Source: Methanobacteriota archaeon (GTDB lineage: Archaea; Thermoplasmatota; Poseidoniia; Poseidoniales; Poseidoniaceae). Taken from it: 64,000 nt of DNA. This document shows, one piece after another, positions 1 through 61,703 of the stretch; the stretch's first letter is position 1; the number at the start of each line of letters is the position of its first letter. A program made the translations under genes and the position numbers. Under the pieces are notes generated by a model. The model saw only the letters and a program-made list of their open reading frames with translations, had not been told where the DNA came from and made no database searches. The stretch lies in contig JAYQHX010000002.1 in NCBI GenBank assembly GCA_038141355.1, forward strand, positions 261,297 to 325,296, read 5' to 3'.

Positions 1-822
1 GGTTAGATTTCCAACTGTGTACCTTCCAGCGCCCCCAAGTCTAACAAGAATGTCAGGTGGCAATGTTACAGTTCCTGTTTCATCAACAATCAATTCTCTG
101 TCTTGGCTTAAATCTTCAACATTTACATTTTCTCCATGTTCAGCTACGAATCTTCCATCTCTTAATTCAAGTGAACGATTAGCAAAGGCTGCAACTTCTT
201 TCGAATGCGTAACAATCAAGAATGATACTCCCTCATTTATGTGTAAGTCTTTGAATAAAGCAAGAACTTCTCTACTTGTGACAGGATCTAGCGCTCCAGT
301 TGGTTCATCAGCAAGGATGAGTCTAGGTTTGGTGATTAGTGCTCGGGCAATTGCTACGCGCTGCTGCTCTCCACCGCTGAGCATTGCAGGCATTGCATGA
401 ATTCTGTGTGACATACCTAGTCTTGTTAGCATCTCATCTGCGATTGCTAATGCTTTCCTCGATCTTACACCTTGATGTCTAAGCGGCTGTGCGACGTTAT
501 CTCTTGCATTCAAATCGGGCAATAGATTTCCTTCTTGAAAAATGAATGAAACGGTTTTTTGTCTTAATTCTACTAATTCCTGACCTGTCAGTCTAGTCAT
601 GTTTTTTCCAACCAAACTCACTGAACCTGCGCTTGGTTTCATGAGCCCTCCGAGACATTTCATTAGGGTTGATTTTCCAGACCCTGAAGGCCCTACTACT
701 GCTATCGCCTCTCCTTCTTTCATGTTGATATGAAGTCCTCTCAAAGCGACTACATTTCCATCTTCGGCCTTGGATTCGTAAACATGGTAAAGTCCTTCAG
801 CTTCTAGTATACTATCAGTCAT
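1..822 (-). CDS. ABC transporter ATP-binding protein (LolD/MacB-like) with C-terminal extension; runs off the window start
   Basis: Not in the ORF track; read manually from ATG at 822: MTDSILEAEGLYHVY...GPSGSGKST (Walker A)...LSGGEQQRVAIARAL...ILADEPTGALD...IVTH; frame stays open to position 1. Confidence 0.9.
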   Translation of the reverse strand, partial: MTDSILEAEGLYHVYESKAEDGNVVALRGLHINMKEGEAIAVVGPSGSGKSTLMKCLGGLMKPSAGSVSLVGKNMTRLTGQELVELRQKTVSFIFQEGNLLPDLNARDNVAQPLRHQGVRSRKALAIADEMLTRLGMSHRIHAMPAMLSGGEQQRVAIARALITKPRLILADEPTGALDPVTSREVLALFKDLHINEGVSFLIVTHSKEVAAFANRSLELRDGRFVAEHGENVNVEDLSQDRELIVDETGTVTLPPDILVRLGGAGRYTVGNLT

Positions 823-824
823 CT

Positions 825-3800
825 TTACTCCCCCTTCAATACACTGGATAAATCAGCCTTCAGTGCCTTTCTTGTGGTTACCAATAATGCGATAACAACT
901 GCTGTAAATACCGCAAAGGAAACAAGGATAATTTGTGTCCATGGATAAATCAGAGTCCTGTCTATTACGGTAGAAGAACCGCCGAATATTTGGAATATGA
1001 ATCCGAAAATATCGAAGAAACCGTTGAACGATAATGCTAGTCCAACTCCTAGCACGATTCCTAAAGCCATTGAAACTATGACAATTGATAAAATTTCGAA
1101 TAGAACCAATCTAATTATTTGATTTGGAGATGCTCCAATTGCCTGAAGTACGGCTAGTTCTTTTTGCCTCTGACTCAATACCAATGAAAGGAATACGAAA
1201 CTAGATGCGACTGCTGCCACACTAGCAACAACGAATTGAAGTGATAGTAGACCTGGAGTTCCAAAAATCAATCCTCCATTTCTTTCAACGGTCTTGTGAG
1301 TAGATGACCAGTCTAGCACAGTCGCGACTCTAGAATCAGCTTCAATTTGCGAGGCTAGGGATTCTAGGTCATCACCAACTACTCTGTCAACTCTTACTAT
1401 CCAAGTTTTGGAACTGTAATTATCAGCATCATCACCAACCAATTCCCTCCAAGAACTCTCTCCAATGATAATTGATGATTCAATTACAGCGGCACCTACA
1501 CCAGGAATGTATTCATGAGTTCCCATGTAATACATAGATGTAGAATAAGGAGTTATGATTAATTCTACGCGTGTATCTGCAAAGAATAGGTCAGCAGCAA
1601 GCGGCGGAGGCAGGTCTGTAGGTCCTGATGCACAGGATGTTTCATCACTGTTAGAACCATCGGGACATGTTGTATTGGACAATATTGCTGACGAAAGGTC
1701 AAATAATCCGAATGTACCTTCAAGGTTAGCGTTTGTAAAGTCAGTACCGTTTAGCGAACCTCCCATGAAATTTACAATGATTGTATGATGTAGGTTTGCC
1801 CCACTTAAATCGGTATTCGTTAGGTTAACATCGAGTAAAATCGATTCACTTAGGTTAACTCCTGACAGGTCTGAATTAGATAGATTGGTTTCAGTCAGAT
1901 CCACTCTACTTAGGTTTCTATCTTCCAACGTTTGTCCAGATAAATCCAATCCAGACCAATCGCTATTCATTAATGCTGTATATGCATTAAACAAAACGAG
2001 AGGGTCTGTTTCATTGCTTCCTCCTGAAGAGAAATTAAATTCTATTTTTTCCCAGATGAAATTGATATTTTCTGATTTTTCATCACTTGGTTTTAGCAAG
2101 ATATCATCTAATCTATTTTCATCGCCGCCTCTATTAGACCCAGCTAGGCGTAAGGAGTACGCAGCATCTTCACCTGCGCTGAAACCGCCATTGCGATATG
2201 CTTTCATGGCATCATCGATATCCTCTCCGGGAATGGATTGTTCGCTCCATCTCAAAACTTCGTAATTATCATCAAAAAGAACGAAGGTCTGAAGTTTGTC
2301 TCCACCTTGTGCATCAGCGAGTGTTATTTCAGGAACGCTGGTTGCTACTGGAGAGGTTTTACTGTTTGTGAATTCACCGATTAACGACAGTAATCCGGTT
2401 TCATTGATTGGCCTTTCCATTTCAATTTGTAGGTCAGATCCTACGGTTGCATCTGCCGTTTTTTCGTCAACTAAGGTTCCAGTATAACCCTGAACCGCAG
2501 CGAGTGTCACAATGGATAACGTTAGGAGCATAATTACGGCGAGTCTGTTAACAGATTCTGTTGACCCTGAGCCCTTTAATCCCCTCTTCACGTCTTTTAG
2601 AATTGGAGAGCGGCCAAATAATAACTGCATTATTTGAGGACCTTTAGCTCCGATTCTTCCAAGCAATAACGCTCCTCCTATCCATAGTCCGAATGGTCCA
2701 AAAATACCTAGAAGACCCTCGATAAAGAAGTTGGAATTTAGGCCGTCTTCACTACCATTCATTTCTAGCCATGAATCGATTACTGCCACCATACCAAACA
2801 AGAATGCAGTCCAATGTAGCCATCTCTTAGGCTCGGTTTTTGTCGTTGTTTTTCTGACACCTTCTTCGATTTCTAGTTCAATGAATTCACGAGTTCTACT
2901 TCTTCCAAATATCATTGCAAGACCTAATGTTGTAATGGCAGTAAACAAGGTTGAGGCAATTCCTAGTGTAGGATTAACCTCGAAATCACCAGTTCTAAAT
3001 TCCATAAAGCCAACTGCAGATAATACAATTGGAACAGCCATAAGTGCTAGGATATAACCAACTAGCCAGGCTACTGACGACATAACAAATAGTTCGAGCA
3101 GTACCATGCCTTGCAAACTTCCTCCGTCTGCTCCAATAACCCTGTGTATGCTAACCTCTCTTCTTCTTTGCTCAAGTGATAATACAAGACCGTAAATGAG
3201 AACTGCAATCGATAATATCACGATTGGAATCATGATAATATAATCAAAAATTTGGATTAGGCCAAGGAAAATTTCCAAAAATAGAATCGTTCCACTTACG
3301 ATATCTGTGTAGTATAATTCAACTCCCTCATCTGTGTAATTTCCACTCTGAACTCTAGTCCCGAGGTCCTCTAGCCATTCTGCAGCATCATCAGTTGATG
3401 TAGTCGGAAGTTGCCCTCTATCAATTGTAACTCCCAGGTACATGTGGTCATAATCCATTAGCGTAGCACGTTCAGATTCCTCTAGGGCCTCCCATGTAGT
3501 GAATATGGGATTGAATGGTAAAGTAGGGTTCCCAAACGGCCATGGTTCATAGATTCCCATAACGGTGAGATTCTCTACAGTCATCCACATTCGACAGTAT
3601 ATCATTTCATTATTTTCAGGGGGTGATCTCCCCTGCACAATTTTCGTCGTTTATACTTCCTTCAAGCAGGGTAGATTCGTCAACAACGTAGGCAAATGTC
3701 AGAGTATCGAGAACATCACCCACTTTTGCTTGAGCCTGACTAGCAATTGTTGATGGTAGGATTATTCCTCTGTTTTTACTCATATTTTCAGGCGTTGGCC

Positions 3801-4443
3801 ATTCTCCGAGTCCAGAGATGATGTTAGCTCCAAGCCTGTCGGCTAATTCACCATCGAATGCTCCGGGGCCCAAGAATCGTATGGCTCTCTTATCAGAGAT
3901 TGGTGGGCCATTATCATCTGCTTCAGGATAAGCGAATGTTACAGAATCCCATAAGGGGTTTTCATTATCTGAGACCGCTCTCATTTCAAGGGGCTGGGCT
4001 ACGACAAACTCAGCATTGAAGAATCCACCACTGTGGATTCCTTGTCGCCCTAAAACGAGTGTGCAATCATTGAATTCACTAAACTCCTCGAGTAACTCAT
4101 CGCAAACACTCGTCATTGTGGTTGTATTGTTAGACCATCCTGTTGCGTTCTCAACAGGAGTTCTTGCGTATTCGATTTTGGCATCAAACGGCTCGGATTT
4201 CAATGATTCTTCAAAGAATAATTGGGACAATCCAACTCCGTATGCTAATACAGTAGTGATTACAAGAGAAGCAAGGAAAACACCAGCAATTACTGCCAAT
4301 CCTCTTTCTTTTCCTCTCCAGGCGCTTTGTCCTGCTAATCGTAATCGGCTTGGTAGTTCTGTAATTTTGTGTTTGTAAGATTGTAATCTAGAACGGTCTT
4401 TGGAAAAATCACTTGAACCCAATTCGATATCGGAATCAATCAT
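825..4443 (-). CDS. FtsX/MacB-type ABC permease (~1205 aa) with pentapeptide-repeat insert; split by a probable +1 error at G5 run 3619-3623
   Basis: ORFs 3616..4443 and 825..3638 join (CAGEIT-PENNEMIYC) if one base is removed; two FtsX-like motifs (QRRREVSIHRVIGA; QRQKELAVLQAIGA); lies between two ABC ATPases. Confidence 0.85.
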
Positions 4444-5159
4444 TCTTCCTCACCTTCCTCATCAAGTCCCCAAGCACTTCGGATATCGGATGCCTTGGTT
4501 TTACCATCGGTTAGAAGCAGCATCCTGTCGGCTTTGGATGCGAGATCTGGGTCATGTGTGACCATTAGAATAGAGATTGGATTTTCCTTGTCGTGACATA
4601 AGTTTTTGAATAATTCAAGGACCTCTGCCCCAGAAGCAATGTCGAGATTTCCAGTTGGTTCGTCTGCTAATAATAGAGGTCTATTTCCAGCGATTGCTCT
4701 CGCAATTGCAACCCTCTGTTGTTGTCCCCCAGACAATTGGTCAGGAATGTGGTGCATTCTGTCTGCGAGGTTTACTTTTTCAAGTGCGTCTATTGCTCTT
4801 TTTTCTGCTTCCTTGGGTTCACTTCCTGCAATTTCAAGCGCCATAGCAACATTGTCAAGAGCAGACAAATTATCTAGCAGATGGAAGTCTTGGAATATCC
4901 AACCTACGTAATTTCTTCGTACATCAACAATTGCTGAAGGATTTTTTGTTCCGTATTTCTTCTCATTTAGGACAATAGAACCCGAATCTGCAGGTAGCAA
5001 TCCTCCAATTATGTTGAGTAGTGTTGATTTTCCACATCCGGATGGACCCATAAGGGCAACTAACTCTCCGCTATCGATTTTCATATCAATGCCTTTCAAA
5101 ACATCAATTTTGTTTGAGCCCGAACCAAAAGATTTCGTTAAAGAATTGACCTCAATCAT
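4440..5159 (-). CDS. ABC transporter ATP-binding protein (LolD/MacB-like)
   Basis: GPSGCGKST, LSGGQQQRVAIARA, LLADEPTGNLD, MVTHD; 4-nt overlap with the permease. Confidence 0.95.
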   Translation of the reverse strand: MIEVNSLTKSFGSGSNKIDVLKGIDMKIDSGELVALMGPSGCGKSTLLNIIGGLLPADSGSIVLNEKKYGTKNPSAIVDVRRNYVGWIFQDFHLLDNLSALDNVAMALEIAGSEPKEAEKRAIDALEKVNLADRMHHIPDQLSGGQQQRVAIARAIAGNRPLLLADEPTGNLDIASGAEVLELFKNLCHDKENPISILMVTHDPDLASKADRMLLLTDGKTKASDIRSAWGLDEEGEEE

Positions 5160-10182: not shown

Positions 10183-11139
10183 TCAAACACGAGCCATGAT
10201 TCCAATATTCAGTGGTATTGGAGCCAGGAAATTCTTGTGAATTGGGTTGTCTTTGTCGTGTCTCTTAACATAATGACTTAGAAGAGTAATAGCCGCAGAT
10301 CTTGGCAGAAGTCCCTTCCTAAACTGGTGAATAACTTCGAGCATCTCGTGCTTGTCTTGCCTGTCGAGATTCGGCAATCTTCCAATCAATCTCTCCATAG
10401 CATGAGCGATTTGTCCTCTCTTTGTTAGTTTTGATAGGAATTTTTGGGCCTCAGTCATGTACAGCAGTGCCACGTTTTCTGGGTGTTCATCTCTATCGAA
10501 AGATTCTGCGATGATTCTACCTAGTGCTCTTTTGGAGTCCGGAGCTCTGCTGAGTAGGAACAATTTGTGTTCAGCGTGGAATTTCATAATTTTCTGGGCA
10601 GTCCAACCTTCTTTTCCGATTCTTAGCCATTCGTGGAAGAAGTGAACTCTCGCTAGGAAATGTTCTGCTTGTAATGGATCGGTCAAACGACCTTCTTCGA
10701 TTACTGGAATGTGGGGGTATAACGTGGTGAATACTTTCGCAAACATACCAACACCATCTCGAACTGCTTGCGGGTTATCACCACGATATACCTTAACGCG
10801 CTCTACACCGCATGTTGGAGAGTCCTTCTTGAAAACGAAGCCGCTGATACCTTCTGATACTAGATAGTCCGATTGCATTTCTGCAAATTCTAGCATTTTG
10901 TCGGTGTAGTCGTTTCCGTTTTTGGGGTCAATGAGCGAAATCTTTTCCCCGTTCTTGACTAACCTGATTGTTGGTCGTGGCACCCCCATGCCGATACCAA
11001 CTTCAGGGCAGACTCCGATTAGGTCAAGGTGGTCGCTCCAAACGCGGTTGAGCACCCTAAACTCTGCGGCATCGCCGTTATAGCGAACCTTTTTCCCAAG
11101 GAGACAAGAAGAAACAGCGAGTTTAGGCTTCTCGGACAT
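10183..11139 (-). CDS. DUF523 (2-thiouracil desulfidase-like) + DUF1722 (YbgA) protein
   Basis: VSSCLLGKKVRYNG, CPEVGIGMGVPR, KKDSPTCG, EEGRL, FHAEHKLFLLSR. Confidence 0.9.
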   Translation of the reverse strand: MSEKPKLAVSSCLLGKKVRYNGDAAEFRVLNRVWSDHLDLIGVCPEVGIGMGVPRPTIRLVKNGEKISLIDPKNGNDYTDKMLEFAEMQSDYLVSEGISGFVFKKDSPTCGVERVKVYRGDNPQAVRDGVGMFAKVFTTLYPHIPVIEEGRLTDPLQAEHFLARVHFFHEWLRIGKEGWTAQKIMKFHAEHKLFLLSRAPDSKRALGRIIAESFDRDEHPENVALLYMTEAQKFLSKLTKRGQIAHAMERLIGRLPNLDRQDKHEMLEVIHQFRKGLLPRSAAITLLSHYVKRHDKDNPIHKNFLAPIPLNIGIMARV

Positions 11140-11814: not shown

Positions 11815-13637
11815 TCCTTCAAACTGAATCTGCTGTGTCCATCCTCACCTTTATCAATGAAAAGTGTCAATCTTCTATCTCCAATTTGGTGTAGCCTGTT
11901 GAATATGAATAGGCTCATCGGGTTGACAATTTCTTGTTCGATTATATTGATTAGTCCACGGCCACCATGGCCAACTTTTCCTTTGCCAACCAAACCTTGG
12001 ACATATACTTCATCTAACTCTAATTCGAGATTGAAATTTTCGAGAAGGTGTTGTTTTATGCCTGTTAATTTAGCATTCATGATTTTTGACCTGATTGCTG
12101 GGTTGGTAATGAAATCGAATACGATTATGTTGTCACCGAACCGATTAAGCAATTCTGGCCGTCCTAAAGTTTCGTTGAAATGACCTTGAACAGCGTTCAT
12201 GAAATGAGATTTAGTGTCATTGTAAGATTTCGAAGGATCCGCATCACTAGCTCCGATGTTTGATGTAAAAATAATCACAGTTTCAGAAAAATGTACAGTC
12301 TGTCCTCGGCCGTCGGTTAGCCTACCATCTTCCAGAATTTGTAAGAATTTGTCTAAAACACGAGGATGAGCCTTTTCGATTTCATCGAATAATAATACGC
12401 TGAAAGGCTTTTCCGCAACCGCATTAGTAAGTTGTCCACCTTCTTCAAAACCAACATAACCTGGGGGCGCACCAATCAATCTTTGATCAGCATGTTCTTG
12501 ACTGAATTCAGACATATCAAATCTGATGCAATTATTCTCATCGCCAAAAATAAATTCGGCAACGGATTTTGCTAGTTCTGTTTTCCCAACTCCAGTTGGG
12601 CCAACAAAAAATAGAGTTCCCTTTGGTTTAGTCATTTGTCTTGAATGTTGAACTCCCGCTAAACCCAGAAATGCTCTTACAATCATAGTGACTACTCTGT
12701 CTACAGCTTCGTCTTGCCCTTTCACACGTTTTTTGATTAATTCACTGGCTTGAGCAACTTTGCTTTCATCTAGTTGCGTCCAAGGGGATTCCTTCTCTCC
12801 GAATCTATACAGATTTACCAAATCATCAATACCCATGCTAGAATCACTTTGTCTAGAAAGTGCAGCCATGTTTCTAATGTCTACCATAGTTAAACCGTCT
12901 GTGATTTCGGCAAGGAGTTGTAATGAATCTCGTTCATTTGATGAATCTTTTACAATGAAGTCTCTTGACATTTTTTGTATTGTTTTCCTTCGGAATTCAA
13001 GATTTGGAGTTGGAATGTTTACTATTTTCACTCTACTATCGTGGTTGTAAAACTTAGGAGGTAATGCCCCTAAGGTTGGAGTTACGATAACTAGTAAACC
13101 GGTAGGGGAATTAAATGATGTAGAACTTAATTGCGAATCATTTAGTTCTGTAATTGCTTTCGCCAAATTGGTTAGTTGATTTCTCTCTTCTGAATCTTGC
13201 TGATTCGGTGTCGTGAGTAAGTGCTCAGTCCAATCTATGATGAACATTGAACGCTTATTTGATTCAGCAGTCAGCACCTTTCTCATGGCTGGGAAAGCAA
13301 CTAATGGGTCGATATATGCGGCTGGTGCACAACCTCCATCTTGCGCATTAGAATCAATATCGAATTCATATTCATCGCCTTCCTCTTCAATACTCGAAGT
13401 TGACTCCATCATATCGTTAAATGTAGTTAGCTGAGATGCATTTGGGAATGATAACCCGTCTATGCTATCCCATGTGCCCTGGAGATTAAATGAGTCTTGC
13501 AAAGTTTCAGTTACCAATTGTGAAAGTCTAAGATTTCGTCCATCATTTGTAGGCCACAAATCCCTAACATTTCCATATAAGATTAGACAACGTCTAAATC
13601 CTGCTTCTCTAGTAATTGTTTTCTTCCATTCCATCAT
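11811..13637 (-). CDS. ClpB/ClpA-family AAA+ ATPase: degenerate N-terminal AAA-like region plus intact NBD2 (AAA_2)
   Basis: VKGQDEAV, GPTGVGKTELAK, RFDMSEF, LIGAPPGYVGFEEGGQLT, LFDEIEKAH, GRLTDGRG, RPELLNR; N-terminal LILYGNVRD / FIIDW remnants; no Clp-N repeats or IGF loop seen. Confidence 0.9.
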   Translation of the reverse strand: MMEWKKTITREAGFRRCLILYGNVRDLWPTNDGRNLRLSQLVTETLQDSFNLQGTWDSIDGLSFPNASQLTTFNDMMESTSSIEEEGDEYEFDIDSNAQDGGCAPAAYIDPLVAFPAMRKVLTAESNKRSMFIIDWTEHLLTTPNQQDSEERNQLTNLAKAITELNDSQLSSTSFNSPTGLLVIVTPTLGALPPKFYNHDSRVKIVNIPTPNLEFRRKTIQKMSRDFIVKDSSNERDSLQLLAEITDGLTMVDIRNMAALSRQSDSSMGIDDLVNLYRFGEKESPWTQLDESKVAQASELIKKRVKGQDEAVDRVVTMIVRAFLGLAGVQHSRQMTKPKGTLFFVGPTGVGKTELAKSVAEFIFGDENNCIRFDMSEFSQEHADQRLIGAPPGYVGFEEGGQLTNAVAEKPFSVLLFDEIEKAHPRVLDKFLQILEDGRLTDGRGQTVHFSETVIIFTSNIGASDADPSKSYNDTKSHFMNAVQGHFNETLGRPELLNRFGDNIIVFDFITNPAIRSKIMNAKLTGIKQHLLENFNLELELDEVYVQGLVGKGKVGHGGRGLINIIEQEIVNPMSLFIFNRLHQIGDRRLTLFIDKGEDGHSRFSLKE

Positions 13638-14563
13638 CTGTTTCCGCCTCCTAAACTTCGAGTATTTCCTCCGGTTGGGAAGCCTTTACTTCCCTTTGAA
13701 ATGCGATCTGGGTTTTTCCAATTATGCTGGACTGGGCCACTTTCGACACCAAATTTTTTCTCAAGCGTCACTAAGACTTCATCTAAGTGGTCTGCACATT
13801 TTCGGTCTACAAAACCTTCCATATCAAATTCCATTTCACCACTTTCTGTAACATCGAATCTAATGTGTCTTCCAGATGACAACTTTCCAACGATTGCTAC
13901 CTTGCCAGATTCTTTGACCAATTTTGGTTTTCCAACCACGAATCCCAGTTCATTCATTGAATTAATTATTGATGAAACAATGTGTCTGCGAAGCTCCTCT
14001 TCAATTACAGATTTGTTGTCTTTATCTCTAATCTCTTTAGCAGATTTTCTAGTCTCATCGATGAACCTATCCAATTCTGACTCATCAGTGAATTTCATTT
14101 TTTGTACCATGTCATCTACATTGTATCTTAGATTGGAGAATGAATCTATGTTCTCTTTTTTATCTAATTCGATTTTAATAAATTTCAATTCATTTTGTAG
14201 AGATTCTAGTTTAGCTGCTTTTCTATTAAGGGTCTGAGCATGTTTCTCTTTTCTGTGGTTGGAAATTTCTTCAATTTGTTTTGCTAGAGATTTGGATTGA
14301 TTAACTTGCCTAAGCATATAGTCTACATCGGCTTCATCAATCGATTTAGCCTTCTCTAAAACATTGCTAATTTCACTGATTTCTTCAGTTGCCCATGCAG
14401 CGTTCCCAGTTCGAGTTAAGGCGGATAAATCAGATTGAATCTCCGAACAAATTTGATTGATTTGTTTCCTTACCCTTTTTCTTCGCTCAACTTCTCGCTT
14501 TCGCTCTATCTCAAGTCGTTGCTTTTCGATTACCCATGCTGGAACAGTGCCTGCTGAACTCAT
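13634..14563 (-). CDS. Coiled-coil protein with C-terminal DUF2997-like domain
   Basis: Long charged heptad region, then IRFDVTESGEMEFDMEGFVDRKC...LEKKFGV resembling DUF2997, then WKNPD and Gly-rich tail; ATGA overlaps on both sides. Confidence 0.65.
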   Translation of the reverse strand: MSSAGTVPAWVIEKQRLEIERKREVERRKRVRKQINQICSEIQSDLSALTRTGNAAWATEEISEISNVLEKAKSIDEADVDYMLRQVNQSKSLAKQIEEISNHRKEKHAQTLNRKAAKLESLQNELKFIKIELDKKENIDSFSNLRYNVDDMVQKMKFTDESELDRFIDETRKSAKEIRDKDNKSVIEEELRRHIVSSIINSMNELGFVVGKPKLVKESGKVAIVGKLSSGRHIRFDVTESGEMEFDMEGFVDRKCADHLDEVLVTLEKKFGVESGPVQHNWKNPDRISKGSKGFPTGGNTRSLGGGNR

Positions 14564-17500
14564 TTTTCATCCCCCGCTGATTTTTTCTTTTCTGCTTTCT
14601 TGCCCCTAGAAATAATTTCTTCAAAGCGAGTATTTGTTGTAGGCAACACCTCTTTATCAACTAGTGGCGAGTGTTTTTCTACCAATTTGCCTAGGGAAAT
14701 GATATCTCCCCCTTTTCGGATTTTCTCGCCACACTGCGCTCCTATGAAGCCATCTTTCTTTTTGATTATTGCACTCCATAGATCATCAGATTTGATCATG
14801 AGAATGATTCTTTCACATACCGATTTTATACCTTCAACATCGCCATCTGAAATCTTTGAGATAGTATTACGAAGTGATTTTCTGAATAACTGGTCTAAGT
14901 TATTCTTTCCAAGATGCTCCAGAACTTCAGGATTCAAATCCTCAATCGCCTCTAATTCAGATTTGAAAGTCTTCTCTGCGATTGAACGCTTCCATCGAAT
15001 GTTCAAATCAGTTGGTTTGATTGTTTTTTCTAGAGTTTTGAAATTGTTTAATTCCAGCATTAATTCTTCGATATTTTCAGGGTTTCGAATATCGGAGAGG
15101 TATAATTTGGTAATTAAGCTACCACAATCAGATGCCATCGGTTCTCCCATATCGTTAATTTCTTCAATTATTTGTTGTATCTCTTCAGGGATTTCATATA
15201 TCGTTGGTTTTTCTAATGATTTTATCCACGTTGGGATACTATTCATCAATACCGGATTAATTAGTTCCGCAAATTTTGGTTTAGTACTTAATACTGGTGC
15301 GTTCCACAACTCTCTGACAAGTAACATTGGTAAATCATCAAAAACAGTTGGTATACTTTGTTTAAGCCCACTGACCCAAATCGAACCATTACAAGGGCGA
15401 TTTTTCTCTGTTGCATCAGAAATTATCTTGCAAGATTTTGAAATATAATTCAAGACTTCTTCTAGCGACAATGTATGCTCCCACTTTATATTAGTCGGCT
15501 CCTTCCAGGAGTCATCATTTCTTTCAACACCTAGTGCCATTAATTCTCTCATCAATTTGATAACTCTTAGCGTGTAATCTAGGCTCGCATTAATTTCTGC
15601 TTCATGGATGAATGGATTACGGTCTTTTCGTACAACGTCTGCGTCTTTTTTCGTTTTCTCGTCGATAATTCCTTTGCTATGTAGACCTGCTAGAGATATT
15701 GCTACTGATTCAGTAGATATTTGATTAGCTCCGGCCAATTCTTTTACAATGTCCTCGAAGTATCTTAATGCTTCAAATTTAGTGGAATTACAATGACCGA
15801 ATCTACAAACTTCTAACCTGGCAGCATCTTCCCATGGCAATCGCTTTTGCCCGTTATTGTGTAATTGCCAAGTCTCTGCAAGATTATTCCAACTTGCGCC
15901 AGAAGCTATTGATTCAAAGACATCTTGTTGAGCATAAGGTTCGACTATGGTCCAGCACCTTTCATTTATTGATTCATCATCTCCCATTATAGAGACTAAT
16001 TTTTCACAAGTACCAATAATGTCCTTCTCAAATAAATCAAATCGTTTGTCGATTAGAACATCAACTATGACGCCTATTACGTCAAATGAACAACCTTGAG
16101 ACAACTTACGGGACTCGTTGTAAATAGAGGCCATATTGCCTATATTCTTGATTTTAGAAATTTGCTCGGTTAACCATATAGTAAAATCAGATTCACTACG
16201 ACTCAATAAAAAGCAAGTTCTTTTATCCAACTCACTTCTTAATCTTCTATCAACTTCTGTGATTGTTTTGAAGCCCATCTCACTATTGAAGCATAATACT
16301 GGCAGTTGTACATTCAGGGATGTGTTTATTTTTCCTTTAATACTAATTTGGGCAGGATAAATCGTTCCATTTGCAGTACTAATTGAACCATTGGGAATTT
16401 CAGTATTGCTTCTTGATAGATCAAATCTTAGTGGGATTTCATCTTCATCTACTAGGTTCCACCCCTTTGTGTTTGTTAGATTTACAGTAGTCCTGTTTCG
16501 GAATAATTGTTCACATGCATCTTTTGTACCTGTCAATTTTATCAAATCATTATGGCCATTAGTTACCATCATACCTCTTGAATCAGATCCTATTTCTTGA
16601 TTCAATATTCGGTGTATGTAAATAACAGGGTCAAAATCTGCAGATTTTACCTTTTCAGTTGGTAGCTTTGATTTCATCATTTCAGAGAATCTTTCAAACA
16701 ACCTTTGCTCGATTTCTTTGTCATTGTTGATCACGGCTTCAATCCATTTCAAACGTATACTGCTTCCTCGTCTATGAACAAAAAATTCGGCAGTTTTGTC
16801 TTCAATTGAAATGGCCAATGTTATGCATATATCAATGAAATCAATGTCGTTTAAATCGCTAAGGCTTTCGTAACTCTGGATTACTAGGTCGTCAAAACGG
16901 CCAGCATTTTTCAGAGCTAGTGTAATATCGTCCCTGGTAGGTACACTAGCCTTCTGTGCGAATTTAGTTAGTGGATTCCAATTCTCAGTTTTAGATAGAG
17001 TTCCTTCAAGGATTCCTTTAATGCCTACACAGATAACTTCTTCACTGCCTAAGCATCTCACTAAACTGAGATTTTCCCTTTTTGCAGGTTCTGTAATTTT
17101 ACCTGTTTGTAATTGCCTTTTACCAGATTCAGTTACTTTAGCCGTGAAGTTCATGAGACGTTTAATTGCATTAGAAACTAGTCCTTTAAAGAGTGACTTT
17201 TTTGGTGCTTCAAGTTGCTTTAACTGTTGTTTTAAGCGTTCTAATTTTCTATATTGGTTATTCTTCACAGCCCCTTTGAAAACATTATTGTTTAATTGAA
17301 ATTCAATCAAATCGATATCTTCACGAAGTTGCTGAGATTGATTTTCCGGTTCTCGCTGATGGCTATCTATAGCTTTCAGATCTATTCAGAGAGCCGAGGG
17401 CTTCTTCGATTAATTCTGGTTCTTTTAATCCTAAACGTTCTGCAATTTCTGCAGCAGAAACATTGGGTATTTCATTAAACGAACGCAGCGTATATTTTTC

Positions 17501-17662
17501 AAGCAAAGTCAAATTACGTTCACTCGATAGTTGTGCATTAACAGCACATCTTTGCATAGGCCATGATGCTTCAATGACATGGACTGGAGAGAAACCAGGG
17601 TTTGACTTCTTCGAAATCAAATTAATCGCTTGTTTAGCATCCTCAGAGCATGTCACGGCCAT
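14560..17662 (-). CDS. Large (~1033 aa) protein with N-terminal wHTH and internal HEPN-like RNase domain; split by probable +1 error at 17374-17376
   Basis: 99-aa and 916-aa ORFs fuse (NRSE-AIDSHQREPENQSQQLREDIDLIEFQL) on removing one base; HTH VSAAEIAERLGLKEPELIEEAL; HEPN pattern LRYFEDIVK...VRKDRNPFIH. Confidence 0.7.
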
Positions 17663-20600
17663 CTATCATCCCTCCTTGTCCAATAACTTCCTGGATTTGT
17701 TTGTACATTGGTTTCTTTACCTTTGAGCCATTATCTCTGATGATTTCAACATTGTTTTTACTCAATGCGAATCGGTTTCCAAGAACAATTAGCAGATTCT
17801 GTGCTCGTGAGAATGCAACGTTAATTCTTTCAGGACTTTTGACGAACGAAGTTCCTGATCTTGGTATCCCACCTTGGTCGAAACCGTTTTTGGTTTGAAC
17901 CTTTTTTGGATTATAAGAATAAGGACGCACCTTCTTTTCAAAGGCATCCCTCTTTTTTTCACTAATTTCCGGAGAAACAACCATACTGACGAATATCACA
18001 GCTCTTTCCCCACCTTGGAATTTATCGACAGTATCAACCTTTACTGATAAGTTTGGCCACCTATTTCTCATTGCAACCCAAGAGTCATTTTCGTTTGCAA
18101 TTTCTCGGAAAGCGTTCTTTTGGTCACCATAAAATGTGATGAATCCAATCGGTAATCTTCCTTCATGGTCTAGATGTTGAAGCATCGAATCTTCAGGCCA
18201 ATTCTCTTGCTGAATCTCTTCTTTACGCTCTGCAACTTGCTGTTCAAATTGGTCGATCATATATTTGGCAATCCTGACCTCTCTGACATTCCTCCTTGAA
18301 GTAGTGTTGGATGGGCTTTCCTCCGAGCAGTATCGGCCGTCTCTATCAAATGTCGAATCAATCCATACGGCATGTTGTTCCTTAACAATCAGTTCCGAGC
18401 CTTCTCTTAGCGCAGAGCCTCCAGAGTCGTTCTTTACTATTGTAAATCCATGCTGCTTCTTTTTGTATTGCTCTTCTTCAGTCAAACCGCGAGTCAATTT
18501 ACCTTCATAGAATTCGTTAGTACAACGCATGATTTGTTCATGCATTCTATATTGTACTGTTAACGTTGATTTCAGCGTTTCATCGGCCTCTTTGAAATAC
18601 TCTGCAAAGAGGGCACTGGTGACCATCCTTTCGAATTTGCCGCCTCTTGCAAATCGTTCGTCTTCCATTTCATCTGCAGTTATTTCTTCTCTAGACTTGG
18701 GGTTTTTGAACGTTGGAGGAAGTTGCCTGTGGTCGCCAACCAATATAGCCTTCCTACCAAGTAGTAATGGTAGCAATATTTCGGGAGGAGTCGCCTTACT
18801 AATTTCATCAATGATAACGAAATCAAACGGGTCTTGTAGATACGGCATGTACCACCCCTTCCTTCCTGCAAAAGATGTGGTAACGCCTTCAATATTGATC
18901 ATACGTTTATACATCTGTTCTAAATCTCTAAGAGTAGATTTCTTGGGATTTTCCAGATCTTTTAGCCAATCGCTTCTAATTTGTCTCCAAATTTCGTTTG
19001 TTTCAATTTCGCTCTGATTGGCCATTAACCAATCATTGCCCGCCTGAATTATTTTTTCAGTGTTAGCTCCTGCTATATCAGTCGAGGTGGAATCGATTAT
19101 ACCACCAGGTAAACCCTGTAATATCTCATTCCAAGATGTGATGCTATCGTTAACCTTTCTTTGGACTAAATTCTTGCTTTCGTCAAGTTGAGAAATTTGT
19201 TTTTTGTTTTGCTCTAATTTGTTCTCCAATTCTTCGATACTTTTGCGAGAATCAATTTGAATAGATTGTAATTTTGAAGAAATCTTCGAAATAATATCCT
19301 TAGAAACATCTGTAATGTTAGAGAGTTCAGACTCTATTGCAGATTTTTCTTCCCGTAATTCTTCGATTGCTGTGTCTACTATAGCACCCAAATTTTCAGG
19401 GGCTTCGAAACTCTTGGTTAACTCAAGTAATTCAGGCATAGATTCATTGTCTACGAATCTTGATAATTCTCTGGTCCAATTTGTCCAGTCGTCATCGCTT
19501 AAACTTGATGAAGAACTTAATTCACTGATTCTATTCTTCAGTTTACTGGCTAATTCGTAATCTTCTTCTTGTACAGCTTTGCCTATATCCTCTCTTAGTT
19601 TCAGGACTTCAGGATCTAAAGAGCCACCACTCGGTAACTTAGTTAGAATGTTTAGAAGTTTTCCGATTTTTTCATCTCTTTCTTGCAACGTTTTATTGTT
19701 CTTTAGCGAAGAAATAAGATCATAATCTAGTTCCATGGCACGAGCCATTTCTTGAGTAATAAGGTCTGGTCTTCCATCGTCATTCAGGTTTATCGCAGCA
19801 GAAACAGTATCTTCTTGGGACAACATTTGATTTCTTTCATAGACGAGTTCGTTTTCATCGTCAAGAATTACCTTTCTTTGTTTTTCAATTTCTAGCAACT
19901 TACTGGATTGTTCTCTCCACAGTTCCTTTACGTTGTCCAATTCATTTTTGCACCGAATAACGCTTTGTTGACCAGTTCTCAGGAGTTCAGACTCCTCAAA
20001 CACATTTCCACAATGCTCACGGATTGATGGTATGAAGAAATCAGTGATTACATTGGTTTCCAAGAAAACTTCAGCCTCTGGATCAACAGATGCACTTCTG
20101 GCGAACCTCCTTATTGGTCTTACATTTGGCGTATGGGGTAATCTTGCTAGAGCATTATCTACGGCCAAATTGGATTGACTTGCTAATAATACTTTTTTTC
20201 CATCTTCAGTTGCCTGATTGATAATCTCTGCAATGACAGTAGTTTTCCCAGTACCTGGCGGTCCTTGTATAAGGAAAACATCTGGTGCATTCAATGCTGC
20301 TCTTACCGCCGACTCTTGTTGTTCATTAAGTGGAGCTAGAGGCTTATGCTGTAGGGCAGGAGGGGTTTTCATGCCGGGTCTTGCCTTACTAATGTCGAAT
20401 AACCAATCATGAACATTATTGTGGCTTGCTTCCAAATCTTTGAGCCTTTTCAGCCCATCATTTTGTCTTTTGATTTGGAAAAGGTCTCGTGAAACATCGT
20501 TAATCAAAAAGTGACCAATATGGGAATCTTTGAGACCGGAGAAAAGGTCGTCTTGATTTGGAGGCTCCACTCTCAATCTGAACTCTTTCATTCCATCCTT

Positions 20601-21808: not shown

Positions 21809-22699
21809 TTATGAATTGAAAAGTGCGCTTCTTGCTAAAATTCCCTTGGCAAACTGATCGGCATTTTCATGTGATTTGATCCATGTTTTTATTACAGTTA
21901 TCAAATCATCAATTTTAATTCCAGATTTTCGATAATCTTTAGGTGCCTTAACACTACCATAGCAAGCCATAAAACCATCTGGATGGAAGAACCAGCCGTC
22001 TGGAAATAGACCTTCTAATTCAGTTAACAATATTCCTTTTTTCTGCATTTTTGGAGAAATGTTGACGCACTGGCCACAATCTGATTGACGAATGACGGCT
22101 TTAGCGCCTCGTTTGAAGAGATGAGATGCCTTGATTTTTGTTCCTGGCGGTATAATCGCAACGCCGCCATTAATACTAAGCGACTTGGCAGCAGTTTTTT
22201 GCTTCTTAAAACTTTTTTCGCTACGAATTTTTCCAATCAATAATTCAGCAGATCTAGAAACAATTTTTGTGTCACTGAACCCTAATCTTCGCCACGAATC
22301 AACCAATTCAGCAAGAACAACATTATCTTTACAATGTTTACCTGAATCTGTTAAATTGAGTTGTTTCGCCCAAAGTTTTAGCGCATCATAAATCGGCTTA
22401 TCTATACTTTTCATCACTTCAACAATCAATCCGAATGCGCTTCCGAACTCGAGACCTTTTACGGCTTGAGAACCGTTACTAAGGTCTATTGCTATACTTC
22501 TTTCATCATCAACTACTACATCAGCACGAGCAAAAATCCAGGCTGCATGCGGTCTCAAAATTTTCAATAACGCCGCACTAAATGCGGCATCTGCGTCAAC
22601 TATTTGATGAGTAACTATCGATATGGGGTCATCTTTCGTTAGCCAATTTTTGACTTTATTCATCTCTTTTAGCGTTTTTCGGCGGTATTTTTCTTCCAT
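21809..22699 (-). CDS. MYG1/DHH-superfamily-like protein (canonical DHH triad not visible)
   Basis: IVTHQIVDADAAFSAALL (motif I), AIDL, GSAFGLI, LTDSG and C-terminal WFFHPDGF resemble MYG1-family motifs. Confidence 0.55.
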   Translation of the reverse strand: MEEKYRRKTLKEMNKVKNWLTKDDPISIVTHQIVDADAAFSAALLKILRPHAAWIFARADVVVDDERSIAIDLSNGSQAVKGLEFGSAFGLIVEVMKSIDKPIYDALKLWAKQLNLTDSGKHCKDNVVLAELVDSWRRLGFSDTKIVSRSAELLIGKIRSEKSFKKQKTAAKSLSINGGVAIIPPGTKIKASHLFKRGAKAVIRQSDCGQCVNISPKMQKKGILLTELEGLFPDGWFFHPDGFMACYGSVKAPKDYRKSGIKIDDLITVIKTWIKSHENADQFAKGILARSALFNS

Positions 22700-22816: not shown

Positions 22817-23519
22817 TTATTCTTCTTCGAATGCCATTAATGCTAGAAGTGCTCTACCTACATTTGTTGTAACTCCATCCGTAATCTGTCTTGATTATTA
22901 GTGATGCATCCTTCAATGGCTTTCGTCCAGAGGATTCATTTTGTTTAGTTCCATTTAGGTGTTTGATTATTGCATCTGTTTGTACAGGACCATTAGCTGC
23001 AATAAACCTCATGATCTTCATACTTCGTGGTTTTTGTAATGCTTCAAATCCAGGTCCTAAGTTAGTGAATAAGTCAACTTCTATTGCCAATTCATCTGCT
23101 TCTAAGGTTGGGTTGTGCGCGGAATCTAGAGAAGTGTAGACTGGGAATCTGTGAGTAAATCCGCTTATTGCTGAGGCGATAGCCATCAAATTTGTTCCAC
23201 CGGCTGTACCTACGTGAAATTCAATTGACGATTTTGAATATTTAGATCTAATTTCAGATACTGCTTCATCAAATAGTTCCATATATCTATCAACGGTATC
23301 ACTAGTCCATGGTTGATTAATAATTTTTACAATTACTTCAGATATTCTACGAGTGTGTTTTCTCCAAGCATTCTCCATATGGCTGATTGTAATATCGGCA
23401 AATGATTGGTCACTTGTAAATAAAACAACAATTTGAGGCTTGTATTTGGCTAGAGGTGCTTCCAAAACGCCAGGTGTTCTACCAATAGGCTGTAATACAA
23501 CTTCAATTGCTTCGGGCAT
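22817..23519 (-). CDS. CARF + winged-HTH transcriptional regulator (Csa3-like, ~233 aa); probable +1 error near 22871
   Basis: CARF-like motifs QPIGRTP, VVLFTS, FHVGTAGGTNLMAIAS; wHTH KIMRFIAANGPV...LKDASLI; removing one base restores WSTTNVGRALL...EEE*. Confidence 0.7.
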
Positions 23520-23543
23520 GTATATCCCATAACTCGCTAGTAC

Positions 23544-24348
23544 TTAGATACAATACGGGCAAGAAACCCCCGCGCACAAATTCTGGGCTTTCTGCCTGTT
23601 CGGGAGTTAGAGGCTCTCTGCACGCCCAGCAAACCTCAGAAGTCGTTTCTTTCAATTCTCCATCAACTCCAACCCTTCTATCGAAGACGAAGCATTCTCC
23701 ATTCCAGTGGGCACCGCCTGTTTGTTCGAAATAATTCAATATTCCACCATGGATTTGGTATACTTCTTGATAGCCTTGGTTTAGCATTACAACGCTTGCT
23801 TTCTCACAGCGTATACCTCCGGTACAGAACATTACAACAGGCTTGTCTTTCGGAATATCAGAATTTGCGACCGCATCGGGGAACGCTCTGAAGGTTTCAA
23901 TATCCAAGTCAACCGCTCCTTCGAAAGTACCCATTCTGACCTCGTAATCGTTTCTAGTGTCAAGAATAGTAACTTCTTTTCCTTCATCGAGCCATTGTTT
24001 GAATTCGTTCGGGTCTAATGGTGTGCCGGTGAATTCATGGGGTTTCACGCCAGGAACTCCTAGTGAGATGATTTCTTTTTTCAGACGAACGTTCATTTTT
24101 CTGAAAGCGCAATCTTCTGATTCAGAATATTTGACCCAGATGTCGCCGAACCTCTCATCGGATTTGATATGTTCAACGAAGATATCGATTTTGTCTCTAG
24201 GTGCTGAAAGAAAAATGTTGATTCCTTCAGGAGAAAGTAGGATTGTGCCGTAAATTCCGTGAGAGTCACACAGAGACTTCAGGGGTTCTTGCAACTCTTC
24301 AAACTCAGGCATATCAAGGAACTTGTATGCTGAGATATTGGTCCAGAT
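23544..24348 (-). CDS. trhO: tRNA uridine(34) hydroxylase, rhodanese family (UPF0176/YceA); probable +1 error at 23567-23571; apparent ATC start
   Basis: NISAYKF, GTILLSPEGIN, DTRNDYE, FCTGGIRCEK, GGILNY, CFVFDRRV; corrected C-terminus GVSCPYCI*. Confidence 0.85.
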
Positions 24349-38180: not shown

Positions 38181-40224
38181 ATGTTGAGGGGGCCGCAAGT
38201 TAGGATTCTCTCACGTCTATCCCATTTTCCAAGGAGTTTAGAAACAGCGTGGGATGTTCCCAGAGACATCTGTTTGCCCGGAATTGCTGAGTATCTAGGT
38301 GTTGTTCGTTCAGCTTTACATGGACCAATAAATGATTTAGTCGAGAAAGGATTTCTAATCGAGAGAAAAGCCCATGTTATCGGTGGTGGCTCAAGAAAAA
38401 GGAAAGTATACCATATCACAGATGAAGGTAGAGAAATCTCAGCAAATACTCATCTATCAAAGAAGGAAAAGAAGGGTAAATTGTTTGGAAAAGTTCCCGA
38501 TAGGGCAGAATTAATCGGTCGAAAAGAGTTTATTGAGAAAGTTTTGACTAATGAAAAAACAATATTAACAGGGCTCCCCGGAATAGGAAAAACCTCAATT
38601 TTGCATGAAATTTCTAGTATTTTAGTTTCCAAAGGGAAGACAGTTCGGTTTTGTACAGTACAATCATTTTCCGATGTCGAAGAAATTTTTTCGGAGTGGG
38701 GTTTCGAATATACTGATGAAGAAGCTGTCCTCAACGCTTCAAAAAATAGTCTCTTGATATTAGATGAATTTCAAGAAATTAACCCAAGACACTTGAAAAG
38801 AATTCAAAATTTCCTGAAGAATGCAAGGAATGTCATTATTGCAAGTCGTCCACCATTATTATTCTCAGATGGATTCGAAATACTTGATGTGCCTCCATTG
38901 ACAATCGATTCCGCAGTTCAATTACTACCTGATGAAATTCAAGAAAAAGAGTTAGTTGCTTCGAGATTGGGTTGTCATCCTCTCGCATTGTTGATGCATG
39001 ATATATCTACTAGTTTACCAGAGGAAGGAGGAGACCTTCAAACCTGGGTTAGAGATGTAATATTACAAGGTTTGAATGCTGAAATGAATGCGATTAATGA
39101 ACTATCAATTTTACCAATTCCAGTTGATGTAGAAAACTTACAAACGCAAGAATACATTCCTGATTTAGATGATTACGCATTACTAAGATGGTTTGATCAT
39201 GGAGTTGAATTACATCATTTAATTAGAAATGTTAGGTCATTATCTATGACGGAAAATGATTACAAAAATGCAGCAGAATATTGGGCTAAAATTGATGGTG
39301 ATAATGCCCGATTAGTCGAAATGTACCTCCGGTTGAAATGTGGAGAAAATATTGAATCTTATCTACTTACAAACTCCGAATCTTTGATGGTTCGTTCCAG
39401 TGCAGGACTTGCAACTTTGATAGGAGATGCGCTGATGAGATATCCTAGTGAAAATTTACACAGAATCGGAGCAATAGTGGCGATAGAAAGAGGCGAGGCT
39501 GAAATTGCAATCGAACATCTTGACAACATAAACGCTCCAGATTTAAGATATGCTGTAGATTTACTAAGTGGAAGAGATACTACATTTATTCCAAAAGATT
39601 CAGGTGTCAAAGCAATAATTTCAGAGGCGTCAAGATTGATTGACGATAGGCTCCCAGATGCTCATATTGTGGCTGATGTTGATGAATTACTTGACCATAT
39701 TAATCTCAGTGAGTTAGATGGCGAATTAAAGAAAGTAGTATTGGTCGCTATTGCGAAAATTAGGCATTCATGGTACATCGCAAATAAAAAAGTGGAACGA
39801 GGCTAGTGAAATTAGAGAGCAATTAGCATCTATTTCCACTGAAAAAGATCCACAAATCATCCAATTGAAATTAAGGGCTGAGATTGCAGAAACACCCCAA
39901 AATTCTCCAACTTTTGATAAATTGGTGGAGGAAGTATTTGCGTTAGATGGGCTCAAAGGAACGATGCTGAAAATTGCCTTAATCTCAAGATGTGATGATG
40001 ATAGAGCTGTGAAACTACTGAACGAAGTAAAACTTCCAAACATAGAGGAGCAAACCAATCTTAATTCCGCAAGGAGATTAGCAGCATCAATATGGTATCT
40101 ACGTGCAAAATACAAGACTCATAATAGCTATTCATCTATTGCAGAGTCTATTTCTCTTTGGAAAAAAGCACTCTGCCCAAACGCAAGCAAGAGCGCCTCA
40201 GAAATGCTTCACAAAATGCTTTGA
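38181..40224 (+). CDS. wHTH + STAND/NB-ARC-like P-loop NTPase with helical C-terminus (~680 aa); probable +1 error at A6 39786-39791
   Basis: N-terminal wHTH (IAEYLGVVRS...YHITDEG), LIGR, GLPGIGKT, ILDEFQ, GCHPLAL, LHHLIR; 541-aa and 157-aa ORFs join as ANKKWNEASE. Confidence 0.75.
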
Positions 40225-40299
40225 TAGAATAATTTGGACCCTTTTTTGGATAATCGAATTATGACAACAATCAAATGCAATCACGCGAAGGTCATTCGT

Positions 40300-44862: not shown

Positions 44863-44911
44863 TTTTTTTGCAGCCCATAGATTGATAAAATACCGGATTA
44901 CACATACATCT

Positions 44912-61643: not shown

Positions 61644-61703
61644 TTTTTTTAGACATCACACTCAAGAACTGTAAGAAATTGGGCCGGAAAGGGGAGAGAA
61701 AAA

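Follow-up and report, generated by a model that had tools for sequence, protein, structure and literature searches.

A helicase-linked HEPN protein in a seven-gene archaeal operon: a possible Mokosh-like defence core

The window analysed here is a 64,000-nucleotide stretch of contig JAYQHX010000002.1 (positions 261,297 to 325,296) from the Methanobacteriota archaeon assembly GCA_038141355.1, assigned to the Poseidoniaceae, and it carries on its minus strand, from 17662 to 14560, an interrupted gene that directly follows the gene of a large superfamily 1 (SF1) helicase. An earlier note, drawn from the letters of this DNA, had read it as one frameshifted gene for a helicase partner with an N-terminal winged helix-turn-helix (wHTH) and a HEPN ribonuclease (RNase) motif, in a layout recalling the Mokosh defence system. 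The question raised by this locus is whether a HEPN domain here takes the place of the PLD nuclease of Mokosh, and in what company the two proteins are found. We find that both belong to an obligate and invariant operon of seven genes, and the sequence comparisons support a core of helicase and nuclease that resembles Mokosh but has HEPN where Mokosh has PLD.

Mokosh is described as an RNA helicase combined with a PLD nuclease (10.1101/2022.12.12.520048; 10.1101/2025.07.10.664194). It is one of the commoner helicase-nuclease defence systems, has been linked to the animal PIWI-interacting RNA (piRNA) factors MOV10L1 and PLD6, and is poorly known in mechanism, type I not having been purifiable in one survey. 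No description of a HEPN-bearing Mokosh partner, nor of the seven-gene cassette, was found in a literature search whose scope left out most subscription journals and supplements.

The HEPN protein: one gene with a conserved domain

As assembled, the first reading frame of the gene is closed by a premature stop at 17365-17363, and the remainder (P0001) is open in another frame. When one base of the run at 17374-17376 is dropped, translation proceeds through a single protein of ~1033 aa, and the 99-aa open reading frame (ORF) and the 941-codon frame are one gene of ~1033 codons. Among 5.8 billion clustered proteins, 14 relatives of P0001 were found (identity 34–89%, coverage of P0001 97–100%), each of them one ORF of 1028–1036 aa, and in the alignment the junction runs in frame in the homologues (...SL(T/N)RSEAIDSH...), whereas the window reads ...SLNRSE, changes frame and continues with ...AIDSH.... 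The single frameshift and the ~1033-aa product that had been proposed are thus borne out by 14 of 14 homologues and by the junction itself. In addition, uninterrupted ORFs of 1022–1119 aa were found in 46 related loci, and in none of these is the gene split.

We also compared positions 16900-17900 with the contigs of four public runs, three of which, from three studies, cover the site. All three covering contigs (runs X1, X5 and X7) have one letter fewer at 17374; that of X1, at a depth of 3, shows no other difference from the window over 405 bases, those of X5 and X7 show 62 and 35 other differences, respectively, and the fourth run, X8, had no contig matching this range. One-base differences in short homopolymers are a common assembly error. 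The break is probably such an error, because the contigs of three public runs lack the extra base, and most likely the frameshift is an assembly error or a rare variant and the gene is intact in nature. It is present as a single copy in the source genome, a metagenome-assembled genome (MAG) of 54 contigs that is 79.7% complete. The window gene might instead be a true pseudogene, or two genes, one for a wHTH protein of 99 aa and one for a protein of 916 aa, and the frameshift in the assembly, the stop that follows it, a possible TTG start at 17310 and the low depth of the only otherwise identical contig without the extra base could be read in this way; but the three covering runs, the 46 ORFs of at least 1022 aa and the unsplit homologues speak against it, and the downstream frame is undecayed, being free of additional stops and matching an intact homologue at 89% identity along 941 residues, so that we give this explanation very little credence. 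Programmed frameshifting was ruled out, as all relatives and the three covering public contigs are in frame.

A separate observation concerns the wHTH-coding part of this gene. Over 85 bases at 17530-17616 the run X7 contig (depth 2.4) has diverged from the window, with the same length and with both flanks matching, which suggests strain-level variation or recombination in this putative adaptor module.

The stretch on which the HEPN proposal had been based (LRYFEDIVKEL...VVRKDRNPFIH) lies within 15840..15523, and translation places RNPFIH at 15621..15604, as had been claimed. We modelled 201 residues around it (window 15984..15382) with AlphaFold and a 35-row family alignment, and obtained a model with a predicted local distance difference test (pLDDT) of 85.2 and a predicted template modelling score (pTM) of 0.74, in which the helix expected after the motif is also seen. 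The top 11 Foldseek rows for this model are MntA-HepT or SO_3166 HEPN toxin entries (probability 0.93–0.99, E 0.07–0.25), none of the rows for the domain reaching E ≤0.001. A second structure search that is independent of Foldseek (VIA, 48,161 chains) was headed by 1wwp (Z 9.0, root-mean-square deviation 2.9 Å, 106 aligned residues), 2hsb (8.2), the HEPN toxin 8xdj (8.0) and 5yep (7.8), followed by MtlR/YggD, Csm6, sacsin HEPN, HepS and RnlA, all over model residues 49..154, with Z falling to 6.3–6.8 for MtlR/YggD, 6.5 for 7ae2, 6.4 for Csm6 6tug and 6.3 for 8jbc; Z values under ~13 are common among helical bundles. The same HEPN matches recur at residues 608..713 of a full-length model of P0002, a homologue 89% identical to the window protein (1wwp Z 8.5, 2hsb Z 8.1). 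The structural weight is therefore in the HEPN entries heading the match list together with an independent profile match, and not in the absolute Z.

The best structural neighbours, HepT/HEPN toxins of MNT-HEPN pairs and Csm6/Csx1, also share with the window domain an R-x4-H near the end of the bundle, at a sequence identity of only 6–19% to HepT/Csm6-type structures. HepT/HEPN toxins and Csm6/Csx1 work as dimers with a composite site. In contrast to these systems, no MNT antitoxin gene accompanies the HEPN protein, and the CARF domain of the locus resides in a separate 221-aa protein and is not fused to HEPN.

The profile match was obtained with hhalign, using as reference nine domains that are true members of DUF4145 (Pfam PF13643, HEPN clan CL0291), each above cut-off and taken from genomes of the phylum. 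The family domain profile reached a probability of 90.9% (E 1.1e-6), or 93.0% with other trimming, and the two share the motif layout [IV]R..[RG]N...H, the R-N-x3-H falling on the [RG]-N-x3-H of DUF4145 and the upstream R678 on a DUF4145 arginine. Six other segments of the protein, taken as controls, reached a probability of no more than 1.1% with DUF4145 and 12.8% with the HEPN profile, and no second, degenerate HEPN copy was detected among them. With the Pfam model itself, the window domain scores 17.1 bits (E 0.0059) and P0002 15.6 bits, both below the curated cut-off of 23.1; sub-threshold DUF4145 matches occur in 27 of the 35 family members (E up to 1, best 1.4e-5), and other Pfam HEPN families match a few (HepT-like 6, HepT-like_2 4, HEPN_Apea 2). 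By sequence, the window domain appears to be a divergent relative of DUF4145 and not a member by Pfam's own rule, and it differs from DUF4145 also in lying mid-protein, behind an MkoB-type N-terminus. The fold model, the structural matches and the hhalign result agree with the HEPN/DUF4145 pattern that had been recognised here, and we hold the HEPN fold and homology with high confidence. According to PMC3710099, the matched entries 1wwp, 2hsb, 3l0i, 1v4a, 2pbe and MtlR are HEPN superfamily members and DUF4145 domains are known fused or linked to helicases and restriction enzymes; the combination of an MkoB-type N-terminus with HEPN was not found in the part of its Table 1 that was available.

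Family members carry 1–7 Rx4-6H words each, hence the bare Rx4H word is within chance and the significance of the motif rests on its conservation. A profile search of 1.84 billion representatives gave 83 proteins at E ≤0.001, about a dozen of them full-length, with identity down to ~20%. In the 35-row alignment (mean column identity 31%, P0002 numbering) only H686, I701 and R705 are invariant, while E611, T627, E636, L660, R681, N682, L694 and T697 are conserved in at least 90% of rows, so that all 11 best-conserved columns of the whole protein fall within residues 611–705. RNxxxH is found in 34 of 35 rows, the exception (P0043) being a short fragment garbled at that place, and in all 54 genome and metagenome loci that cover the site, which represent 43 distinct domain sequences with identity down to ~24%; the arginine and histidine proposed earlier are thus retained throughout these loci. 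In the EDAAR word of the first HEPN helix, at least 90% of the 35 rows retain E611, and at least 90% of the close homologues, of which there are 14, retain R615, a position that varies in distant relatives. These features correspond to the HEPN hallmarks given in PMC3710099, namely Rx4-6H with a polar residue (N, D or H) after the R and an acidic residue typically in Ex3[KR].

We consider it likely that the domain is a catalytically active RNase. The domain could also be a sensor or regulator that binds RNA or a nucleotide, with the blocking activity residing elsewhere, in the AAA+/radical-SAM module described below or in the alpha/beta region of the same protein. HEPN domains without catalytic function are known, and two kinds of them listed in PMC3710099, MtlR-type regulators and nucleotidyltransferase substrate-binding domains, appear among the structural matches. 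Five other genes are always co-inherited, the AAA+ protein is the most conserved of the cassette, and some 900 residues of the HEPN protein are unassigned. However, the non-catalytic families described in PMC3710099 are those that have lost Rx4-6H, whereas all 54 loci examined here retain the R, N and H, the E-x3-R is kept and the best-conserved columns all lie around the motif, which makes a purely sensory role unlikely.

The overall architecture was examined in the full-length AlphaFold model of P0002 (pLDDT 85.3, pTM 0.56). Its N-terminus consists of a beta-hairpin (24-50), a helix-turn-helix (53-100) and a wing formed from strands at 173-190, and three helices (108-124, 131-151 and 157-170) are inserted between core and wing. 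MarR-type winged helices match this part with Z up to 10.0 (model 49..188, 66–79 aligned residues), and the wHTH that had been claimed is therefore seen in the models. For the alpha/beta region there was no match in Pfam, NCBIfam, PADLOC or the PDB sequences and no usable ESM Atlas hit (residues 170-462), and the C-terminal 320 residues had no match in Pfam, NCBIfam, PDB-sequence profile or Foldseek searches. The 941-aa part as a whole has no family in Pfam, NCBIfam or PADLOC at normal thresholds. Searched against all PDB sequences, the family profile found only a weak LexA wHTH (E 0.032) and nothing in the HEPN region, while Foldseek with the full-length model returned generic helical-repeat proteins only.

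These N-terminal matches raise the question of whether the HEPN protein is mainly a MarR/LexA-like DNA-binding transcription factor of the operon, with a HEPN-like bundle that serves ligand binding or dimerisation, as in MtlR. The MarR-family similarity, the MtlR/YggD matches and the weak LexA wHTH (seen also with Pfam LexA_DNA_bind in 10 of 35 members) would suit such a role, but a length of 1033 aa and translational coupling to a helicase would be unusual for a repressor, the same N-terminal module heads MkoB nucleases, the cassette contains a separate CARF-wHTH candidate regulator, and the catalytic-type residues are invariant. Of all the alternatives, this one appears the most improbable.

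The helicase partner and the comparison with Mokosh

The helicase upstream of the HEPN-protein gene matches two PADLOC MkoA profiles, PDLC03920 (E 6.7e-85) and PDLC03921 (E 9.1e-76), as well as Pfam AAA_11 (2.1e-34) and AAA_12 (9.9e-30); its match to NCBIfam TIGR00376 (Upf1/IGHMBP2-like, E 7e-49) lies below cut-off. In the HEPN protein, the 99-aa piece matches two PADLOC MkoB profiles (E 1.2e-7 and 1.7e-6) over profile positions 3-70/74 only, and such matches, again confined to the first ~75 profile positions, are found in 22 of 35 family members (best 1.2e-9). The HxKx4D (HKD/PLD) word was present in none of 16 family members checked, and Pfam PLD gave no match. The N-terminal 99 residues are 66–70% identical in relatives in which the rest of the protein is 33–41% identical, which fits a conserved docking surface.

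The complex was modelled from residues 230-1025 of the helicase, with an alignment of 51 rows, and the first 200 residues of P0002, with one of 14 rows. The score was 0.57 (runs 0.57, 0.58 and 0.53), against 0.00 for the best of three controls, with at least 74% of contacts shared between runs and a partner pLDDT of at least 68. Of the pairs used for calibration, 116 of 157 solved complexes attained the mark, as did 2 of 215 mismatched pairs; the range up to 0.60 held 18 of the 157 solved complexes together with both passing mismatches, so that the value obtained falls in the weak band, and the partner chain is that of the homologue P0002 and not of the window. The prediction counts as modest support, because the prior from gene linkage is already good, and it suggests that the N-terminal module may bind the helicase. 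Modelling with the helicase, which the earlier note had suggested as a check, thus gives weak support for their complex.

The likeness to Mokosh type I comprises the MkoA helicase, the MkoB N-terminal module, the order of helicase followed by partner, the overlapping gene ends and the general logic of a helicase with a nuclease-type partner. In contrast to Mokosh type I, the partner has no PLD but HEPN, is ~1033 aa long compared with 454–610 positions in the MkoB profiles, and never occurs with the helicase alone but always in an operon of seven genes. Moreover, Mokosh function has been shown in bacteria, whereas the cassette described here, a predicted system, is mostly found in archaeal MAGs. 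The helicase-HEPN core is not a strict member of Mokosh type I, because both the PLD domain and the two-gene layout are lacking. Of the proposal made earlier, the Mokosh-like combination with HEPN for PLD is upheld by the MkoA helicase, the MkoB N-terminus and the missing HKD word, whereas the notion of a gene pair gives way to a larger operon. The retention of the MkoA helicase and the MkoB N-terminus with PLD exchanged for HEPN suggests that the N-terminal module is a portable helicase adaptor, and the exchange itself suggests RNA as the target of the system.

A seven-gene operon and its distribution

In the window, the helicase and the HEPN protein are the third and fourth of seven genes on the minus strand (Table 1), the last five overlapping by 4–20 bases and the first and second being followed by gaps of 154 and 86 bases, respectively. 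The same seven genes in the same order are present in four genome contigs, three of them labelled as Poseidoniaceae, Thermoplasmatota or Methanobacteriota MAGs and one as Rhodothermales. Metagenome loci were fetched with an alignment of the 309-aa gene, which gave 67 contigs, and linkage was counted where a contig reaches far enough. The AAA+ gene was present in 55/55 cases, the HEPN protein in 49/49, the radical-SAM gene in 47/47, the helicase in 34/34, the 296-aa gene in 22/22 and the CARF gene in 19/19, with all genes on one strand. The HEPN protein and the helicase are thus part of an obligate, invariant seven-gene operon.

Table 1 Features of the HEPN-protein gene and of the seven-gene operon, in window coordinates
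Feature	Position	Strand	Remarks
N-terminal piece of HEPN-protein gene (gene iv of the cassette)	17662..17363	minus	99-aa ORF with premature stop after ...SLNRSESYR; beta-hairpin and helix-turn-helix core
Rest of HEPN-protein gene	17385..14560	minus	P0001, 941 open codons and stop
Homopolymer run with one extra base, giving the frameshift	17374..17376		three bases
Helical (coiled-coil-like) insertion	17152..17340	minus	residues ~108-170, between HTH core and wing
Alpha/beta region	16282..17145	minus	residues ~173-460; first strands finish the winged helix; from model secondary structure
HEPN domain	15523..15840	minus	residues 608-713 of intact protein
EDAAR	15817..15831	minus	E-x3-R word in first HEPN helix; from translation
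RNPFIH	15604..15621	minus	R-N-x3-H catalytic-type motif; from translation; R, N and H invariant in alignment
C-terminal all-helical region	14563..15522	minus	residues ~714-1033; from model; no recognised family
CARF-like domain and C-terminal wHTH, 221 aa	22854..23519	minus	gene i; Csa3-like layout
296-aa protein, no family	21809..22699	minus	gene ii; weak MYG1/DHH-type phosphoesterase lead
MkoA-type SF1 helicase, 1359 aa	17643..21722	minus	gene iii; upstream neighbour of the HEPN-protein gene, whose start its end overlaps by 20 bases
309-aa protein	13634..14563	minus	gene v; variable coiled coil and very conserved C-terminal 120 residues; overlaps neighbours by 4 bases
ClpB-D2-like AAA+ ATPase, 608 aa	11811..13637	minus	gene vi; N-terminal 290 residues without family
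NrdG-like radical-SAM activase, 210 aa	11182..11814	minus	gene vii

The Rhodothermales-labelled contig, CAZEHJ010000089.1, carries the full cassette and is of the four the nearest to the window (HEPN protein 40%, helicase 55%); its bacterial label reflects either a mis-binned contig or a transfer between domains.

At the head of the cassette, the CARF protein matches PADLOC CARF profiles with E 1.2e-8 to 2.6e-3, and its C-terminus (residues ~165-235) gives weak wHTH matches (IclR E 0.0058; Csa3 6w11/2wte E ~1). In size and layout the gene resembles Csa3, the CARF-wHTH regulator of CRISPR loci, but the matches to Csa3 are far from significant (E ~1), and a search of three carrier genomes (80–90% complete) turned up neither Csm1/Cas10 nor a SMODS cyclase. 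The 296-aa protein that follows has no Pfam match even at E 10 and only PDB profile search rows of E 1–2 (4py9 E 2); an ESM Atlas cluster at rank 18 (score 0.93), in which 16% of members carry MYG1, provides a lead only. Together, the CARF gene and the 296-aa gene look like a CARF sensor without a known signal source.

For the 309-aa protein no family was found, and profile searches gave coiled-coil noise only. The AAA+ protein matches Pfam AAA_2 (3.2e-53) and, below cut-off, NCBIfam ClpB (1e-81), as well as PADLOC PDC-M37B (6.6e-33) and DolB (4e-21), in both cases over the ATPase core only (residues ~280-466). Its AAA+ core is what it shares with Dodola DolB and PDC-M37B, which belong to candidate defence systems; unlike in those systems, neither DolA nor PDC-M37A is found among the cassette proteins, and the N-terminal 290 residues belong to no family. 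The radical-SAM protein matches Pfam Fer4_12 (2.3e-32) and scores 108.5 bits with NCBIfam NrdG TIGR02491, against a cut-off of 126.1, and NrdD (PF13597) was found in none of five genomes searched (80–93% complete), compared with 6 of 14 control genomes; this protein thus has neither the equivalog score of NrdG nor an NrdD in the genomes searched. By eye, and with no formal test, a glycyl-radical motif (RVxG[YF]-like) was not seen in the cassette proteins. The radical-SAM activase is always linked to the AAA+ protein and to the 309-aa protein, whose near-invariant tail of ~120 residues is a candidate target of the enzyme. The helicase also ends in an invariant glycine pair (G1350 and G1351), another candidate target.

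Among 401 genomes of the order, 4 carry the HEPN-protein gene, the window's own included; none of the 28 other genomes of the genus has it, and the window genome is the sole carrier there. The guanine-plus-cytosine (GC) content is 0.365–0.366 at 14–18 kb, compared with ~0.40–0.45 further out. Identity to the most distant loci is 24–25% for the HEPN protein, 27–33% for the CARF protein, 34–36% for the helicase, 40–43% for the 309-aa protein, 46–49% for the 296-aa protein, 50–60% for the radical-SAM protein and 70–72% for the AAA+ protein, making the HEPN protein the fastest-evolving and the AAA+ protein (70–94% identity) the most conserved of the cassette. A rare and patchy cassette in which the nuclease-type part evolves fastest is what would be expected of a defence system.

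The operon could, on the other hand, be a cellular RNA-surveillance, RNA-processing or stress module that turns over the cell's own RNAs. Upf1/IGHMBP2-like helicases and HEPN RNases also take part in housekeeping RNA decay (PMC3710099), ClpB-like ATPases are stress proteins, no defence genes lie beside the cassette in the window and the cassette was not found on viral contigs. We nevertheless regard such a housekeeping role as improbable, since the patchy occurrence, the GC content below that of the flanks, the fast divergence of the HEPN protein against the slow AAA+ protein and the different flanking genes among loci all argue against it, and the best family matches are to anti-phage profiles (MkoA, the MkoB N-terminus and CARF).

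The cassette is bordered in the window by genes for a TrhO-like protein (24312..23503) and a 2-thiouracil desulfurase (11139..10183), neither of which is conserved beside it, apart from one short desulfurase match at the very end of contig L082. The end of the TrhO-like rhodanese gene (UPF0176_N and Rhodanese, minus strand) overlaps the beginning of the CARF gene by 17 bases; the absence of this rhodanese gene beside the cassette at other loci marks it as the upstream border of the insertion here.

Proposed mechanism and other genes of the window

We propose that the conserved N-terminal module would dock the HEPN protein onto the helicase, which would sense or translocate on foreign, probably viral, RNA or on an intermediate of replication or transcription. 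Thereby two partner molecules would come together, and their single HEPN domains would form a composite, metal-independent RNase site; RNA cleavage there would yield 2',3'-cyclic phosphate ends and would halt the invader or the cell that it has infected. HEPN would thus take the nuclease role that PLD holds in Mokosh type I. From their invariant linkage, the CARF-wHTH protein and the possible phosphoesterase may form a regulatory or signal-clearing arm, and likewise the coiled-coil protein, the ClpB-like AAA+ protein and the NrdG-like enzyme may be a second module of the same system. We judge the proposal as a whole, a HEPN-type Mokosh-like defence core within a seven-gene operon, to be reasonably probable.

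Several points weigh against this proposal. RNase activity, dimerisation, binding to the helicase and a role in defence are each a matter of inference; activity would need self-association, because each chain has one HEPN domain, and the helicase complex rests on a score in the weak band with a chain from a homologue. The structural and Pfam scores of the HEPN domain are as modest as described above, about 900 of 1033 residues have no assigned function, so that a second active site could hide there, and the copy in the window is broken as assembled. One of the five co-inherited genes could encode the true effector. On viral contigs, a search with the 309-aa gene found no sign of the cassette, and PHROGs contain no family for the HEPN protein, nor for the 309-aa, 296-aa and CARF genes. 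Nor is there support from a defence island, as the neighbourhood of the cassette in the window holds no known defence genes.

A broader and more tentative possibility, to which we attach rather little confidence, is that the seven genes constitute an undescribed type of archaeal immune system, in which a helicase-HEPN sensor/effector pair is wired to a remodelling/radical module, made up of the ClpB-like AAA+ protein, the NrdG-like enzyme and the coiled-coil protein, and to a nucleotide-signal arm, made up of the CARF-wHTH protein and the possible DHH/MYG1 phosphoesterase. The ultra-conserved tail of the 309-aa protein may then be the substrate of the radical-SAM enzyme, and RNA fragments released by HEPN, ending in 2',3'-cyclic phosphates, could provide the signal.

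The operon joins parts that are not known to cooperate, namely an unfoldase resembling ClpB, an NrdG-like enzyme that lacks its usual substrate and a CARF regulator to which no known cyclase could be assigned. If this broader reading is correct, the system would be the first relative of Mokosh in which an RNase replaces PLD, and also the first defence system that couples a glycyl-radical-type activase to an unfoldase. The hosts are Marine Group II-type archaea, which are abundant in the ocean and whose antiviral defences are barely described; a defence system in these organisms would enlarge the archaeal repertoire and provide a new HEPN RNase whose trigger is open to study.

Elsewhere in the window, the minus strand at 825-5159 encodes a 937-aa FtsX-type permease with pentapeptide repeats in the middle of the protein (Pfam Pentapeptide 1.7e-14), an unusual architecture, flanked by two ABC ATPase genes and by a 275-aa gene of no family. 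On the plus strand, 38181-47191 and 55479-63179 encode very large secreted-type proteins, comprising one of 1542 aa (beta-helix, PKD), one of 791 aa without a family, one of 2054 aa (FG-GAP repeats) and one of 491 aa (EF-hand, acidic repeats), which are probably archaeal cell-surface proteins. An AAA_5 ATPase gene is located at 38181-39806.

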